DNA of 32,000 bases from Candidatus Saccharimonadota bacterium. GTDB taxonomy: Bacteria > Pseudomonadota > Gammaproteobacteria > Enterobacterales > Enterobacteriaceae_A. The translations under genes and the position numbers were made by a program. Shown piece by piece: positions 4,013-30,125 of the stretch (position 1 is the stretch's first letter; each line of letters begins with the position of its first letter). The DNA lies in NCBI GenBank assembly GCA_030849405.1, contig CP116499.1, positions 60,001 to 92,000 on the forward strand. Direction: 5' to 3'. The notes under the pieces were generated by a model, which saw nothing but the letters and a program-made list of their open reading frames with translations, had not been told where the DNA came from and ran no database searches.

Positions 4013-4038
4013 TAACTAAAATAAAAAATAATATTTTG

Positions 4039-4057
4039 ACCCGGTATATAACCGGGT
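4039..4057. terminator. GC-stem hairpin between the convergent rpsI and clsA genes (candidate bidirectional intrinsic terminator)
   Basis: ACCCGGT (4039-4045), loop ATATA, then ACCGGGT (4051-4057) form a perfect 7-bp stem, extendable to 9 bp with a G-T and a T-A pair. It is followed by TATTTATATT on the + strand and by CAAAATATTATTTTTT on the - strand. It is one of only two GC-containing intergenic hairpins I could find. Confidence 0.5.
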
Positions 4058-4111
4058 TATTTATATTAAATAAAATAATTTAATTAACTATAAAATTTAT
4101 ATTATTTTAAA

Positions 4112-9025: not shown

Positions 9026-10198
9026 ATGTTTAAAAAAAAAATTTATTTACCTATTTTTAAAAATTATTCAAAAAATATTACAAATATTTATAGTAATGGT
9101 GTTTTAGAAATATTTAGAAAAGGATACGGATTTTTAAGATCTTTAAATAATTCTTATGTATCTAATAATAACGATATTTATGTATCACCTAAACAAATTA
9201 GACGTTTTAAATTACGTACAGGTGATACAATTTTTGGTAAAATTCGTTTTTATGATAATAAAAATTTTTACCCATCTTTATTAAAAATAAAAAAAATAAA
9301 TGATGAAAAACCAAATATTAAAAAAAAAACTATTTATTTTAAAAATTTAACTCCATTACATACAACTAAAAAATTATATATGGAAAGAGGTAATGGTTTA
9401 ATTTCTGATTTAACATCTCGTATTTTAGATCTTGCTTCACCTATTGGTAAAGGTCAACGAGGATTAATTGTAGCACCTCCTAAAGCAGGTAAAACAATGT
9501 TATTAAAAAGTATTGCACAAAGTATAGTACATAATCATCCAGATTGTTTTTTGATAGTTTTATTAATTGATGAAAGACCAGAAGAGGTAACTGAAATGTT
9601 AAGATCAGTAAAAGGAGAAATAATAGCATCAACATTCGATGAATTACCAACAAGACATATTTATATTTCAGAAATGGTATTAGAAAAAGCAAAAAGATTA
9701 GTTGAATTAAAACATGATGTAGTAATTTTATTAGATTCAATAACACGTTTAGCTAGAGCATATAATTCAATAGCCCCAGTATCTGGAAAAATATTAACAG
9801 GTGGAATAGATTCAAAAGCATTGCATAGACCTAAAAGATTTTTTGGAACTGCTAGAAATGTTGAAGAAGGAGGTAGTTTAACTATTATTGCAACAGCTTT
9901 AATTGATACTGGTTCTAAAATGGATGAAGTAATATATGAAGAATTTAAAGGTACAGGTAATATGGAATTACATTTATCACGTAGAATATCAGATAAAAGA
10001 ATTTATCCTGCTATTAATTATAATAGATCTGGAACTAGAAAAGAAGAATTATTAACTACAATAGAAGAATTAAAAAAAATGTGGATATTAAGAAAAATTG
10101 TAAATATGATGGATGAAACAGATGCGATAGAATTTCTTTCAAAAAGATTATCAATGACTAAAACAAACAGAGAATTTTTTGAAATAATGAAAAAATAA
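9026..10198 (+). CDS. rho: transcription termination factor Rho (N-terminally shortened, 390 aa)
   Basis: It is near-identical to E. coli Rho from GVLEI onward ([25 protein letters not shown], Walker [62 protein letters not shown]). Only 24 aa precede GVLEI, versus 52 in E. coli. Confidence 0.95.
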
Positions 10199-10254
10199 AT
10201 TTATAAATTTTAAAGTAATGTTTAAAATAAAATAAAATAAAATATTTTTTAAAA

Positions 10255-10665
10255 TTATAAATTATTATCATTAATCCAACTTTTTAAAATTAATTTAGAT
10301 GATATAGAATCTAAATAAATATTTTTAATTTTATGTTGTTTTTTATAAATTAAAATAAAATATTTTGCTTCTTTTGTACTTAAAGATTCATTATGAAATA
10401 AGACTTTAATATTAAATTTATTATAAAAAATTATAGAAAATTTTAAAATTATATATAAAAATAATAAATTTTTATTATTTAAATTTATTGGTAATCCAAT
10501 AATAATTAAATTAGGATTCCAATTTTTAATTAAATATTTAATTTTATTCCAATTAATTTTATTATTATTTATTTTTAAAGGCTTTAATAAAGATATAGTT
10601 TTTGTTATTTTTTGACTAATTGATATTCCAATTTTTTTAATTCCAAAATCAAATGATATAAACAT
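10255..10665 (-). CDS. ruvX: putative pre-16S rRNA nuclease / Holliday-junction-resolvase-like protein YqgF (RuvX)
   Basis: 136 aa. The N-terminal FDFGIKKIGISIS matches the YqgF D-x-G-x-x-R/K-x-G motif and the size matches E. coli YqgF (138 aa). The remainder is degenerate. Confidence 0.7.
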   Translation of the reverse strand: MFISFDFGIKKIGISISQKITKTISLLKPLKINNNKINWNKIKYLIKNWNPNLIIIGLPINLNNKNLLFLYIILKFSIIFYNKFNIKVLFHNESLSTKEAKYFILIYKKQHKIKNIYLDSISSKLILKSWINDNNL

Positions 10666-10708
10666 TATAAATAAAATAATTTAATTTTTAAACAATATAA
10701 AATAATTT

Positions 10709-12238: not shown

Positions 12239-12655
12239 TTTTTATAACTTAATAATTATTAATAATTTATAAAATATAAATTTATTTATTATTTAAAATT
12301 TAATTTTTATTAAAAAATATTAAAATAAAGTATATATTTTAATTTAAATTTATAAATTATTTTAAAATTAATATTTTTATTTTAAATTTATTGAATTTAT
12401 AATATAAATTTTTTTAAAAAAATAAATAAAATAAATATTTGAAATAATTTAAATATTTAAATTAATTTGTATTTTAATATTATTTATTAATTTTAATAAT
12501 TTTATATTTATTTTAATTTTAAAAATATTAAATTTTATTTTAAATATATAAATTAAATTATAATTTATATTTTAAAATAAAATTTAAAATATAATTTTTT
12601 ATTTATTTTAATTATAATTATAATAAATATAATTAAATTTAAAATATTATAATAA

Positions 12656-14173: not shown

Positions 14174-15442
14174 TTAATATTTATAAATTAATTTTGGTTT
14201 TTTAATTTTAGAAACAATTTTTTTATCTATTATTAAAGTAATATTATTATATTTTATTGAAGGTAAATCATACATAATATTAAGTAATATTTCTTCAACA
14301 ATAGTTCTTAATCCTCTTGCTCCAGTTTTTCTTTTAATAGTTTTTTTAGCAATTTCTATTAAAGCACAATCAGTAAATATTAATTTTACATTATCCATAT
14401 ATAATAAAACTTGATATTGTTTAATTATTGAATTTTTAGGTTTCTTTAAAATTTGTGCTAATATTTTTTCATCTAAATCATTAAGAGTAGCTATAATTGG
14501 TATTCTTCCAATAAATTCAGGTATTAAACCAAATTGAATTAAATCATTAGGTTCAATTTTTGGAAATAATGTTTTTTTTTTAATTTCATTAATATTTTTT
14601 TTAATATTAGCTACGAATCCAATACCTGTATTTTTATTAATACGTTGTTCAAGTATTTTTTCTAATCCAGAAAATGAACCTCCACAAATAAATAATATTT
14701 TTGATGTATCAATTTGTATAAACTCTTGATTTGGATGTTTTCTTCCTCCTAATGGAGATATAGAAGCAATTGTACCTTCAATTATTTTTAATAAAGCTTG
14801 TTGTACACCCTCTCCTGAAACATCTCTTGTGATTGATGGATTATTTGTTTTTTTGGCAATTTTATCAATTTCATCTATATAAATAATTCCATGTTGCGCT
14901 AAATCTATATTATAATCACATTTAATTAAAAGTTTTTGTAATATACTTTCAACATCTTCTCCAACATAACCTGCTTCAGTTAATGCAGTAGCATCAGCTG
15001 TAGCAAATGGTACAAATAAAAAGTTAGCTAAAGTTTCAGCTAATAAAGTTTTACCACTACCAGTTGGTCCTATTAATAATATATTACTTTTTTTTAATTC
15101 TAATAAATTTGAATCAGCATTATTTTTTAGACGTTTGTAATGATTGTATACTGCAACAGATAAAACTTTTTTAGCTTCATTTTGACCAATAATATAGTTA
15201 TTTAAATGCTTACATATTTTATAAGGTGTAGGTAATTTTAATTTTATAGTTTTAAAATTAATATATTCTTCAAATTCTTTAAATATCATTTTACTACAAA
15301 TATTAACACATAAATCACATATATATACAGATGGTCCAGAAATTAAAATATTTAATATTTTTTTATTATCGCCACAAAAAGAACAATTAGGTATAAAATT
15401 GTATTTTTTATATTTTATATATTTTCTATTTTTTCTAACCAT
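14174..15442 (-). CDS. clpX: ATP-dependent Clp protease ATP-binding subunit ClpX
   Basis: 422 aa. It has the N-terminal zinc-binding CSFCG...CDLC, Walker [19 protein letters not shown] and GARGLR. An AAGGA Shine-Dalgarno motif lies 6 nt upstream. Confidence 0.95.
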
Positions 15443-15465
15443 TTATTATCCTTAAAGTGTTTTTA

Positions 15466-15627
15466 AAAATTATTTACTAACTTAATTAAAAAATTAAATT
15501 AGTAAATAAAATTATTTACTAACTTAATTAAAAAATTAAATTAGTAAATAAAATTATTTACTAACTTAATTAAAAAATTAAATTAGTAAATAAAATTATT
15601 TACTAACTTAATTAAAAAAATTAAATT
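15466..15627. repeat. tandem array of a 42-bp unit (3 identical copies plus 1 truncated), each unit an 18-bp inverted repeat
   Basis: 15469-15510, 15511-15552 and 15553-15594 are identical base for base. A fourth copy (15595-15627) has one extra A in the loop and is truncated where it overlaps the clpP stop codon. Each unit reads TTATTTACTAACTTAATT-AAAA-AATTAAATTAGTAAATAA. Confidence 0.95.
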
Positions 15628-16247
15628 CTATGTGTAAAAATTTTATCTATTATACCATAATTTAAAGCTTCTTTAGCATTCATAAAAAAATCACGTTCAG
15701 TATCTAAATTTATTTTTTCTATAGTTTGACCTGTATGTTTAGAAATTAATTTATTTAATTTTTTTTTTGTTTTTAAAATTTCTTTAGTATGTATTTCAAT
15801 ATCACTTACTTGACCTTGACAACCTCCTAATGGTTGATGTATCATAATAGAAGAATTAGGAAGACAAAAACGTTTTTTTTTAGTACCTGCCATTAATAAA
15901 AACGATCCCATTGAACAAGCTTGACCTATACACATTGTACTTATATCTGATTTTATAAATTGCATAGTATCATAAATTGACATTCCTGAAGTTATAATTC
16001 CACCTGGTGAATTAATATACATATAGATATCTTTTTCTGAATTATTTGATTCTAAATATAATAATTGTGCTGTTATTAAATTAGCAACATAATCATCTAT
16101 TATTCCAGTTAAAAAAATAATTCGATCTTTTAATAAACGAGAAAATATATCGTATGTTCTTTCACCTGATAAAGTTCTTTCTGATACTATAGGAATTAAT
16201 GACGATATTTTATTAAAATTGTTAAAATCAAATTTATTATAAGTCAT
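15621..16247 (-). CDS. clpP: ATP-dependent Clp protease proteolytic subunit ClpP
   Basis: 208 aa. [18 protein letters not shown] is present, with catalytic Ser in [11 protein letters not shown] and His in MIHQPLGG. Confidence 0.95.
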
Positions 16248-16270: not shown

Positions 16271-16298
16271 ATTATATTATATTATTTTTAAAAATCAA
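16271..16298 (-). promoter_or_regulatory. candidate sigma70 promoter for clpP: TTGATT-16 nt-TATAAT
   Basis: The - strand reads GTACTTGATT(16298-16293)-TTTAAAAATAATATAA-TATAAT(16276-16271), ending 23 nt upstream of the clpP ATG with an AAAGGA Shine-Dalgarno motif in between. The TACTTGATT -35 context is shared with the tRNA operon promoter candidate at 23114. Confidence 0.4.
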
Positions 16299-26217: not shown

Positions 26218-27276
26218 TTAAAATTTAATTCGATTAAATACTTTACCAGATAATTGTCCACATGCTGCATTAATATCAATTCCTCTATTTTTTCTAATAG
26301 TAACAATAAAACCATAATTTAATAATATATTATAAAATTTATGTATTTTATTATTAGAACTACATAAATATTTAGAATAAGAAAATTTATTAAATGGTAT
26401 TAAATTAATTTTACATAATAAATTTCTTAAAATATAAGCTAATTGATGTGCATATTTTTCTTTATCATTAACATTTTTTAACATAATATATTCAATTGTA
26501 ACACCATTTTTATTTGCTTTAGATTTATAAATATAATTTTTAATTGATTTTAAAATATTTTTAATATTATATTTTATATTTAATGGAATTATTAAATTAC
26601 GAATTTTATTATTAGAAGCATGTAAAGATAAAGCTAATTTAATATCTAAATATTTTTTTAAATTATTAATTGCTGGTATTATACCAACAGTAGATAAAGT
26701 TATTTTACGTTTTGAAAAATTAAAACAATATTTATTAAGCATAATTAATATAGAATTTACAATATTTTTAAAATTTAACAATGGTTCCCCCATACCCATT
26801 ATTACTATATTTGTTATAAAATGCAATTTTTTAATTTTAATAAATTTCATAACATTTAAAATTTGACTAATAATTTCAAAAGTATATAAATTTCTATTAA
26901 AACCTTGTTTACCAGTAAAACAAAATTTACAACCTAATGAACATCCAATTTGAGATGATATACATAATGTAGCACGATTATATTCAGGTATATAAATAGT
27001 TTCAATTTTTTGTTTATCTATTTCCATAATAAATTTAATTGTACCATCATATGAATAATTTAATTTAAATAAATTTAAAGTATTTATATAAATAATTTTT
27101 TTTATTTTAATTAAAGTATTTTTATTTAAATTATTAAATAAATTGAAATTATTACTTTTAAAATTATATATTTTTTTAATTAACTGTTTTGCTCTAAAAG
27201 ATTTTTCACCTAAAATAATAAAAATTAAAAAAATTTCTTTATAACCTATATTTAATAAATTAATTTTTTTAATAAT
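26218..27276 (-). CDS. rlmN: dual-specificity 23S rRNA/tRNA adenine-C2 methyltransferase RlmN (radical SAM); model extended 83 codons upstream of the track ORF, start codon non-canonical or unresolved
   Basis: The track ORF (26218-27027) holds the radical-SAM core (SSQIGCSLGCKFCFTGKQGFNRNL, MGMGEPLLN, LSLHA, INLIPFN, DINAACGQL). The 83 in-frame codons upstream (27276-27028) read IIKKINLLNIGYKEIFLIFIILGEKSFRAKQLIKKIY...YSYDGTIKFI and align with the E. coli RlmN N-terminal domain ([34 protein letters not shown]...SSDGTIKWAI). This stretch contains no ATG, GTG or TTG. AAGG (27284-27281) lies 4 nt upstream of the first ATT (27276-27274). Confidence 0.75.
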   Translation of the reverse strand: MIKKINLLNIGYKEIFLIFIILGEKSFRAKQLIKKIYNFKSNNFNLFNNLNKNTLIKIKKIIYINTLNLFKLNYSYDGTIKFIMEIDKQKIETIYIPEYNRATLCISSQIGCSLGCKFCFTGKQGFNRNLYTFEIISQILNVMKFIKIKKLHFITNIVIMGMGEPLLNFKNIVNSILIMLNKYCFNFSKRKITLSTVGIIPAINNLKKYLDIKLALSLHASNNKIRNLIIPLNIKYNIKNILKSIKNYIYKSKANKNGVTIEYIMLKNVNDKEKYAHQLAYILRNLLCKINLIPFNKFSYSKYLCSSNNKIHKFYNILLNYGFIVTIRKNRGIDINAACGQLSGKVFNRIKF

Positions 27277-27409
27277 TTAACCTTAAAATAAAATTTTAAA
27301 TTATTTAAATAATAAAATTACTTTACAATTAATTAAAATTAAAACATTAATAATTTTTTATAATATTAATAAATTAAAATTTAAAAATAAATACTTTATT
27401 AGGAATTAT

Positions 27410-30033: not shown

Positions 30034-30053
30034 TTTTTTACCTTAAATAATTA

Positions 30054-30078
30054 TGGGTATAGATTTTTTCTATACCCA
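30054..30078 (-). promoter_or_regulatory. 10-bp GC-containing stem-loop in the dnaK-dnaJ spacer (mRNA structure or attenuator candidate)
   Basis: TGGGTATAGA (30054-30063), loop TTTTT, then TCTATACCCA (30069-30078) form a perfect inverted repeat. On the sense (-) RNA it sits about 47 nt after the dnaK stop and 20 nt before the dnaJ ATG, just upstream of the AAGG Shine-Dalgarno motif. No U-tract follows it on the - strand. Confidence 0.5.
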
Positions 30079-30125
30079 ATAATTAATTTTTTTTTAAAAA
30101 ATTAAATTTTTAATAAAAAATAAAA

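Follow-up and report, generated by a model that had tools for sequence, protein, structure and literature searches.

Imperfect palindromes of the REP/BIME type, which serve enterobacteria as stabilisers of mRNA between cistrons (for example between malE and malF), are 35-42 nucleotides (nt) long, lie within operons, and are thought to block 3'-to-5' exonucleases. Inverted repeats at the 3' ends of chloroplast mRNAs and the intercistronic hairpins of the Rhodobacter puf operon serve as elements of 3'-end processing or stability, not as terminators. PNPase stalls at stable stem-loops, and RNase III cuts long double-stranded RNA. Another kind of palindrome, the CIRCE operator (HrcA), has the consensus TTAGCACTC-N9-GAGTGCTAA and is located upstream of chaperone operons. 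REPs are GC-rich, dispersed in tens to hundreds of copies, marked by a GTAG/CGTC head and linked to RAYT transposases (PMC3733652). Tandem repeats have proliferated in the spacers of the tiny genome of Portiera of Bemisia; they are short repeats whose lengths peak sharply at 7 bp, and they occupy many spacers, and the account does not mention hairpins (PMC3673631).

Genomes of ~220 kb are usually assumed to have lost nearly all gene regulation, and their spacers are taken to be decaying filler. We describe herein a tandem array of hairpin-forming units in the spacer between clpP and clpX of such a genome. It is a noncoding element that appears to be under purifying selection and yet is a hypervariable repeat, against a background of ~95% G/C turnover. 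With moderate confidence, we regard it as an intercistronic stem-loop that has turned into a lineage-persistent, selected VNTR in a 221-kb genome. No relevant report of a clpP-clpX intergenic stem-loop was found in the literature, and two Psyllophila genome papers mention no tandem repeats, intergenic regions, palindromes, clpP or clpX.

Repeat structure and folding of the clpP-clpX spacer

ClpX, ClpP and DnaJ of the 32-kb stretch of DNA analysed here (the window) match proteins of 'Enterobacteriaceae bacterium PSpyr' at 100% identity, and the source of the window, judged by sequence, is 'Ca. Psyllophila symbiotica' PSpyr, the symbiont of the psyllid Cacopsylla pyri. The PSpyr genome (host C. 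pyri) comprises 221,413 bp (~221 kb) with ~205 CDS (PMC10654072, Table 1). Its GC content is 17%, and that of the window is 17.5%. The gap between clpP and clpX in PSpyr is 178 nt, and the array within it lies ~5 kb from a GC-skew switch at ~10.0-10.7 kb. Positions of the features are collected in Table 1.

Table 1. Features of the clpP-clpX locus and the dnaK-dnaJ spacer, numbered along the window
Feature	Position	Strand	Remarks
clpX, 422 aa	14174-15442	-	NCBIfam ClpX, 1.7e-177; 100% identical to WMC20312.1
clpX leader	15443-15465	-	Shine-Dalgarno AAGGA at 15449-15453, read from sequence
Exact period-42 identity, full extent	15466-15619	.	154 bp
Three 42-nt units	15469-15510, 15511-15552, 15553-15594	-	base-for-base identical, ATTATTTACTAACTTAATTAAAAAATTAAATTAGTAAATAAA
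26-nt core GTTAGTAAATAATTTTATTTACTAAT, three copies	15498-15523, 15540-15565, 15582-15607	-	sequence search
Truncated fourth copy	15595-15627	-	one extra A in loop; overlaps clpP stop
Mini-hairpin of truncated copy	15605-15627	-	AAUUUAAUU-UUUUU-AAUUAAGUU, 9 bp, one G.U; holds clpP stop codon
clpP stop codon	15621-15623	-	inside 5' arm of first (truncated) hairpin
clpP, 208 aa	15621-16247	-	NCBIfam ClpP TIGR00493, 1e-93
Promoter-like site upstream of clpP	16271-16298	-	TTGATT-16-TATAAT, consensus match alone
dnaK-dnaJ spacer hairpin	30055-30077		single copy, GC-rich 9-bp stem

Each 42-nt unit is composed of an L arm and an R arm of 18 nt, and each arm can pair with the neighbouring arm on either side. 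Forty of the 42 nt belong to an inverted repeat of 18 bp with one imperfect position, which is C-A on the + strand and G-U on the - strand, and the stems hold a single G-C pair per 18 bp. The 26-nt core lies at the apex of the R-UU-L hairpin, and the three G/C positions of the unit all fall within it; it matches three times in the window, each time inside the array, against an expectation of 0. TRF assigned the array a period of 42, 3.8 copies, 99% matches and a score of 315. The other arrays in the window that scored at least 100 had 62-81% matches, which makes the clpP-clpX array the most perfect by far. It is also the sole multi-copy array of at least 85% identity in the 32 kb. The units follow one another head-to-tail, an arrangement that, together with their length, places them among the minisatellites or VNTRs (head-to-tail repeats of roughly 10-100 bp). 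A CRISPR array is ruled out, since the units abut directly without unique spacers.

A single hairpin in the sense RNA has a predicted energy of -14.9 kcal/mol in the register L-UUUU-R and of -13.5 in the register R-UU-L, and the corresponding antisense values are -10.6 and -9.6. For three hairpins in the sense RNA the energies are -46.8 and -42.0, so that the two registers are nearly equal in energy. The global minimum of the sense fold is nested (-61.2, z = -9.2). With a folding z of ~ -10 in the sense and ~ -7 in the antisense direction, this spacer is extreme among the 22 of the window, the remaining 21 ranging from -5.5 to +2; two others, rpsI-cls and dnaK-dnaJ, are also strongly structured. 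A search for known RNA families (Rfam 15) gave no match at E<=1 in 15350-15750, and in the whole window it matched tRNAs only. The anatomy given in the preliminary description is borne out by these analyses: three identical 42-bp units and a truncated fourth with an extra loop A reaching the clpP stop, an 18-bp inverted repeat with a single C-A (+) or G-U (-) position, and two alternative hairpin registers, now found to be close in energy. The 9-bp mini-hairpin around the stop codon, also proposed there, is predicted in the MFE folds.

Copy number and sequence turnover among sister lineages

The comparison set comprised six Cacopsylla lineages (PSpyr, PSpyc, CP181165.1, PSpic1/2, PSmel and PSpru), with the symbiont of Anomoneura mori as outgroup. 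A tandem hairpin array with a period of 42, 37 or 38 nt occupies the same spacer in 6/6 of the Cacopsylla-associated lineages fetched. PSpyr (C. pyri) has 3.8 copies of 42 nt; PSpyc (C. pyricola) has 2.9 copies of the identical unit; and CP181165.1 (222,480 bp), which is probably a C. mali strain, has 2 copies of 42 nt, both perfect. A 37-nt unit recurs 7.1 times in PSpic1 and 10.1 times in PSpic2 (both from C. picta). PSmel (C. melanoneura) contains about 3-4.6 degenerate copies of 37-38 nt with 69-77% matches. In PSpru (C. pruni), 8.9 copies of 38 nt at 99% are adjoined by a 7-bp microsatellite, (ATTTATT) x 24.6, and then by a 10-mer x 5.3, in a spacer of 611 nt. Spacer lengths across the Cacopsylla clade thus run from 108 to 611 nt, and the outgroup has a plain 42-nt spacer with no array. 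A TTAG...CTAA core is common to the units across lineages. The two fetched melanoneura strains have identical degenerate arrays, whose units align both with those of 42 nt (z 3.1-3.5) and with those of 37 nt (z 6.2).

We conclude with high confidence that the Cacopsylla-associated strains inherited the array from their common ancestor, that it is specific to this locus, and that units have been gained and lost by slippage. The array is not the recent expansion that had been suggested earlier, because each of the six Cacopsylla-symbiont lineages fetched has a homologous array. Nor did the dispersal of the unit that had been considered come to light: in a pattern scan that covered one genome per species, the hairpin motif occurred nowhere outside the clpP-clpX spacer of the complete PSpyc genome, which also rules out a dispersed REP-like family. 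The scan gave a second match, in a Bacillota MAG: a single hairpin-like site, in sequence richer in GC, that looks like chance. In the 8-9-kb sister loci, too, no multi-copy array reaches 85% identity outside the clpP-clpX spacer, and the outgroup locus has none. Inheritance from free-living relatives was considered and rejected, the clpP-clpX spacer of E. coli (125 nt) folding no better than its shuffles (z -1.4) and that of the outgroup being unstructured (z 0.2). On the sense strand of every lineage with an array, z ranges from -7.4 to -32 against shuffles.

SPAdes uses k = 127 by default, and the 154-bp stretch of perfect periodicity lies within the 127-168 bp of a minimal path through a repeat collapsed at this k. 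PSpyr was assembled with SPAdes from Illumina 2x250 reads alone, and the sister genomes from Nanopore and Illumina reads (PMC10654072). Because of the short-read assembly and the length of the perfect stretch, the copy number of PSpyr may be a lower bound. That the array as such is a repeat collapsed or invented by the assembler is scarcely credible, since the identical unit occupies the same place in the Nanopore-hybrid assembly of PSpyc and arrays are present in seven other independent assemblies. Its existence is backed by the Nanopore-hybrid assemblies of sister strains, and doubt is confined to the copy number of PSpyr. Short-read assemblies of Psyllophila genomes are likely to be wrong at the array, which otherwise offers a ready-made strain-typing marker for Psyllophila of pear and apple psyllids.

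The array is a VNTR, because its copy number varies (2 to 10) among lineages and within C. picta. Over 9.1 kb, PSpic1 and PSpic2 differ by 13 substitutions and by three 1-2-bp indels, and within the array by unit indels of 74 bp and 37 bp. Such free drift is what would be expected of the main rival to a function in RNA, a neutral or self-propagating palindromic minisatellite, in which a chance palindrome slipped and hairpin-forming units were re-amplified with no benefit to the bacterium. Gain and loss of units would be promoted by hairpins that form in the nascent strand or in the lagging-strand template. Several further observations favour this rival, and some of them also count directly against an RNA module. 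Copy number (2-10) differs even within one host species; turnover has left the lineages with units of different sequence and period; the array of C. melanoneura shows decay, with 69-77% identity and two A.C mismatches; and the outgroup, which has no array, manages with an unstructured 42-nt spacer. Because plain, non-hairpin microsatellites adjoin the array of the C. pruni strain, the spacer evidently tolerates junk. Other spacers (rpsA-pykA) have expanded through degenerate repeats, and the tandem repeats of Portiera provide a precedent for such proliferation in a tiny genome (PMC3673631). Moreover, DNA-level maintenance of palindromy and of covariation is possible in principle. We consider the minisatellite possible, if on balance rather unlikely, in view of the constraint described below.

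Constraint on the unit, strand asymmetry and helical phasing

Between PSpyr and PSpyc the 42-nt unit shows 0/42 differences. The two share 90-94% of positions in coding DNA, 88.5% of synonymous third positions and 73-88% of spacer positions, and the probability of 42 unchanged neutral sites is ~0.885^42 = 0.006 (hand calculation). The two arrays differ by one unit fewer in PSpyc and by the loop of the truncated copy (UUUUU vs UUAA), and by nothing else; the 9-bp stem of that copy is identical. Of the G/C at synonymous third positions in PSpyr, 2/44 are kept in PSpyc, about 95% having turned over, and the counts for the other five genomes are 4/36, 4/33, 2/33, 0/31 and, for CP181165.1, 2/37. 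In the array, 8/8 aligned G/C positions are kept in PSpyc, or 3/3 per unit (3/3 against 2/44, Fisher p = 6e-4). Spacers besides the array have 2.9% GC, and the other spacer G/C retained between PSpyr and PSpyc belongs mostly to Shine-Dalgarno sequences, that of clpX among them. The CP181165.1 unit is identical to that of PSpyr at 38/42 positions, including the whole 26-nt core with all three G/C positions.

Pairing was examined in 12 distinct hairpins, drawn from four lineages and aligned. In this alignment 95.4% of cells are paired, compared with 40-57% for slid partner columns, and double-sided changes occur at 7/15 pairs compared with 2.3+-1.1 in shuffles (0/500 reach the observed value). 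Substitutions in the stems across lineages are compensatory or wobble-compatible. The preliminary description had set free drift of copy number against conservation of the stem. Both are observed: copy number drifts freely (2, 2.9, 3.8, 7.1, 8.9, 10.1), while the stems and the G/C positions are conserved.

These data weigh against the neutral minisatellite. A unit identical in two species, with all of its G/C kept while 95% of neutral G/C turned over, is not easily accounted for by concerted evolution. Species diverge no more slowly where the copies of an array are homogenised, and identity of the unit across species thus points to constraint. In addition, the unique truncated copy keeps its stem and changes its loop only, and the DNA sampled contains no comparable array elsewhere. 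The array, though a VNTR, therefore appears to be NEVERTHELESS constrained. By these comparisons, the sequence of the unit, its G/C positions and its base pairing are under measurable purifying selection.

The sense strand folds better than the antisense strand in all lineages, and the imperfect stem positions of the sense strand comprise 12 G.U cells (about 9 events) against 2 A.C. The preference for G-U over C-A had been put forward as evidence for a structure at the RNA level. It fails as such, because the sense strand is G-rich anyway, with a G/(G+C) of 0.69 at third codon positions and of 0.60 in spacers, and given this excess of G a 9:2 split has P = 0.12-0.31. The sense (G-rich) strand is also the lagging-strand template. 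Single-stranded DNA of that template would form G.T wobbles as well, so the asymmetry cannot tell an RNA from a DNA reading. For the minisatellite, strand skew thus suffices to explain it.

An element acting at the level of DNA would consist either of phased sites for a palindrome-binding protein or of a site near the replication terminus at which a cruciform forms or the fork pauses. The palindromic units, the distance of ~5 kb to the GC-skew switch, and a period of 42 bp, equal to four helical turns, could all be read in this way. The four turns of B-DNA and the phased binding sites of the preliminary description do not survive the comparison, since the period is 37 or 38 nt in sister lineages, which breaks the phasing. 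Furthermore, the complete PSpyc genome contains the motif at this one locus only, and there is no obvious candidate protein among the ~205 genes. Resemblance to CIRCE is limited to TTAG..CTAA. No more than this motif is shared, the spacing here is 9-6-9 or 9-2-9, and the element is downstream of clpP; a CIRCE/HrcA site was accordingly rejected. A DNA-level element of either sort is very improbable.

Transcription, mRNA decay and relation to known systems

A promoter scan found no sigma-70-like site within or after the array in PSpyr. For that reason, clpX is probably transcribed through the array, as far as promoter-like sequences can tell. The array was also considered as a set of promoters for clpX and rejected: a weak TTTGCA-18-TAGAAT is present in the C. 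picta units alone, and there is none in the PSpyr and C. pruni arrays.

If clpX depends on read-through, the units might be leaky intrinsic terminators in tandem, a rheostat in which copy number sets the output of clpX. Like Rho-independent terminators, both registers of PSpyr are followed by U-rich runs on the sense strand (UUUUAUUU and UUUUAAUU). The missing promoter-like site downstream and the different copy numbers of the host lineages would suit such a device. The stems, with one G-C pair each, are not GC-rich, whereas the genome keeps GC-rich terminator-like hairpins elsewhere (in the window, one separates the convergent genes rpsI and cls). Nor is the U-run conserved: AAAUAAAU follows the hairpins of C. 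pruni. A terminator scan returned 0 terminator-like sites in the clpP-clpX spacers of PSpyr, PSpic2 and PSpru, and nusA is not listed for the clade. Finally, 7 versus 10 copies within C. picta would amount to a large multiplicative change in an essential unfoldase. A classical intrinsic terminator was rejected on the empty scan and the near lack of G-C pairs in the stems, and the rheostat is improbable. Of the functions listed in the preliminary description, a stabiliser or processing site and a slippage minisatellite are both still alive, and the terminator fits less well.

The machinery on which a stabilising or processing stem-loop would depend appears to be present in the clade. In a table of A. 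mori symbiont genes and their PSmelET orthologues, pnp (PSCM_0080, dN/dS 0.035), rnc (PSCM_1310), rnpA and rho are entered, and none of rne, rnb, rnr, hfq and nusA is given by name (PMC11427311 supplement 3). Orthologues of pnp and rnc are thus found in Psyllophila PSmelET, and rho is encoded in the window as well. Because pnp and rnc are listed while rne, rnb and rnr are not, RNA turnover in these cells would rest largely on PNPase and RNase III.

A second hairpin, in the dnaK-dnaJ spacer, is conserved in the outgroup as well as in PSpyc, PSpic2 and PSpru; three of its pairs have changed in a compensatory way, and none is broken. Like the array, it lies in the spacer of a stress operon whose first product is needed in excess, shows compensatory changes and retains its G/C. 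Unlike the array, it has a GC-rich 9-bp stem in a single copy, is present in the outgroup, and does not vary in copy number. Because it is conserved with compensatory pairs, intercistronic hairpins in stress-protein operons are, by the pattern of substitutions, under selection in this clade.

Our best explanation, on which we are evenly divided, is that the array is a selected intercistronic RNA stem-loop, serving as a block to PNPase and/or as an RNase III site, that was amplified to an array with neutral copy number. What would be expected of a stabilising or processing element was found: a stable stem-loop on the sense strand, a structure conserved in six lineages, and no promoter-like site before clpX. 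The array would be transcribed within the clpP-clpX message, as the lack of a promoter-like site in it suggests. Its RNA would fold into hairpins of 17-18 bp or into longer nested helices; folding potential and conservation are observed, and folding in vivo is presumed from them. The clpP segment would then be shielded at its 3' end by hairpins that stop the 3'-to-5' exonuclease PNPase, and/or the hairpins would offer a double-stranded RNase III site at which clpP is split from clpX. Stems of 18 bp are slightly short for a classical RNase III site. In either case clpP mRNA would outlast clpX mRNA, which fits a greater need for ClpP. ClpP works as a 14-mer with hexamers of ClpX. Selection would retain at least a few strong hairpins, and copy number would be free to drift, because only the hairpin nearest to the attacking end counts. 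Under a mutation bias that erodes G-C pairs, long AU stems in several copies may replace one GC-rich stem.

The last point can be carried further. The array as a whole may be an adaptive answer to extreme AT pressure, in which redundant AU/G.U stems are kept in tandem and renewed by slippage, and copy number may tune ClpP:ClpX according to host lineage. In this form the idea builds on the neutral GC of the spacers (~3%), because of which a GC-rich stabiliser hairpin would be hard to hold. We put it forward tentatively and regard it as unlikely. If true, it would mean that a noncoding RNA element of a 221-kb symbiont genome survives by the birth and death of its units. If the selected stem-loop is the right explanation, the strains offer a natural series of 2-10 hairpins in which the effects of PNPase and RNase III on operon stoichiometry could be tested, in a clade for which RNase E, Hfq and NusA are not listed. 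They would also provide a test of how structured RNA survives under extreme AT bias.

Among described systems, bacterial minisatellites and VNTRs resemble the array in the head-to-tail arrangement of their units and in a copy number that varies between close strains. The repeats of Portiera, like it, occur in spacers of a symbiont genome that is tiny and AT-rich (PMC3673631). Unlike them, the array is confined to one locus, is made of palindromic units and shows constraint at the level of sequence. The array resembles REP/BIME elements in setting: its unit is an extragenic, intra-operon, imperfect palindrome (40/42 nt in an inverted repeat), and both are arranged in tandem, with a gene needed in excess on one side and a gene needed less on the other. 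In contrast to REP/BIME elements, it is AU-rich, restricted to a single locus and strictly head-to-tail; neither end of its unit shows a GTAG or CGTC tetranucleotide, and a RAYT gene is unlikely in a genome of 205 CDS. In its proposed role the array parallels REP/BIME stabilisers and also chloroplast mRNA 3' inverted repeats and the puf hairpins. The last two likewise act in processing or stability and in a small genome or a polycistronic setting. Those elements are usually single stem-loops whose function was shown by experiment, whereas the clpP-clpX hairpins come in tandem, and a role in processing or stability is suggested for them by their folding, their conservation and their place in the operon.

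GC retention and folded spacers

Among the minus-strand genes and spacers of the window from 10 kb on, spacer GC content was 2.9%, and the G or C residues at synonymous third positions of the genes were almost never common to the sister genomes (L001, L003, L005, L007, L008 and L010), with 2 of 44 being shared with the closest one. Because synonymous G/C is almost never shared between sisters, its retention provides a sensitive test of constraint in these genomes.

The spacer between dnaK and dnaJ folded with a z-score, relative to shuffled sequence, of about -4 to -5. Its stem-loop (GGGUAUAG/CUAUACCC) was kept in PSpyc, PSpic2, PSpru and the symbiont of Anomoneura mori (loci L011-L014), where three pairs had undergone compensatory changes and none was broken. 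The stem-loop is probably an intercistronic hairpin under selection. In the spacer between the convergent genes rpsI and cls (z = -3.4 in the window), AUUU comes after a GC-rich hairpin (GACCCGGU...ACCGGGUU), and the arrangement resembles a terminator working in both directions. GC-rich stems are thus still held at some sites despite a genomic GC content of 17%.

Coordinates of the features discussed
Feature	Location	Strand	Remark
rpsI-cls hairpin	window 4038-4058	+	
Putative replication terminus	window ~10000-10700		between rho and ruvX
rpsA-pykA spacer	window 12239-12655		417 nt
ClpP C-terminus	window 15624-15629		
rlmN	window 26218-27280	-	first ATG at 27027
dnaK-dnaJ spacer	window 30034-30125		
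dnaK-dnaJ stem-loop	window 30055-30077	-	
rpsA as called in PSmelST17	L006 7294-8830		316 + 184 aa
Repeats in clpP-clpX spacer, C. pruni strain	L007 3717-3952		(ATTTATT) x 24.6; 10-bp repeat x 5.3

Starts, ends and apparent interruptions of genes

In rlmN, about 84 conserved N-terminal codons (KINLL..GEKSFRAKQ..) lie in frame upstream of the first ATG, and no ATG, GTG or TTG follows the preceding stop codon there. Either a non-canonical codon is used for initiation, or the start codon has been lost.

The C-terminal residues of ClpP are THRI in PSpyr and PSpyc (L001); they read THRE in the strains from C. picta, C. melanoneura and C. pruni (L003, L005 and L007) and THRK in the further lineage CP181165.1 (L010). 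In PSpyr and PSpyc, the first hairpin arm of the array in the clpP-clpX spacer contains the last codon and stop codon of clpP, so the array boundary has shifted 7 nt into the gene.

Separately, rpsA was called as two pieces in PSmelST17 and as a single gene of 511 aa in PSmelAO1. Since these loci are distinguished by indels of one base, the apparent split is due either to a frameshift or to a sequencing error in a homopolymer.

Probable replication terminus and expanded spacers

Between rho and ruvX, the GC skew changes sign, the cumulative skew reaches its maximum, and gene orientation turns from plus to minus. This region, ~5 kb away from the array, is probably the replication terminus.

The rpsA-pykA spacer is built of degenerate repeats of 95-105 nt and 31-51 nt (matches of 62-78%), and showed no excess folding in the window (z = -0.5). 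Its length is 328-438 nt in the Cacopsylla-symbiont strains versus 100 nt in the outgroup; it appears to have expanded and now to be simply decaying.

In the C. pruni strain, a 7-bp microsatellite and a 10-bp repeat directly follow the hairpin array. This ATTTATT microsatellite is reminiscent of the spike of 7-bp repeats reported for Portiera of Bemisia.
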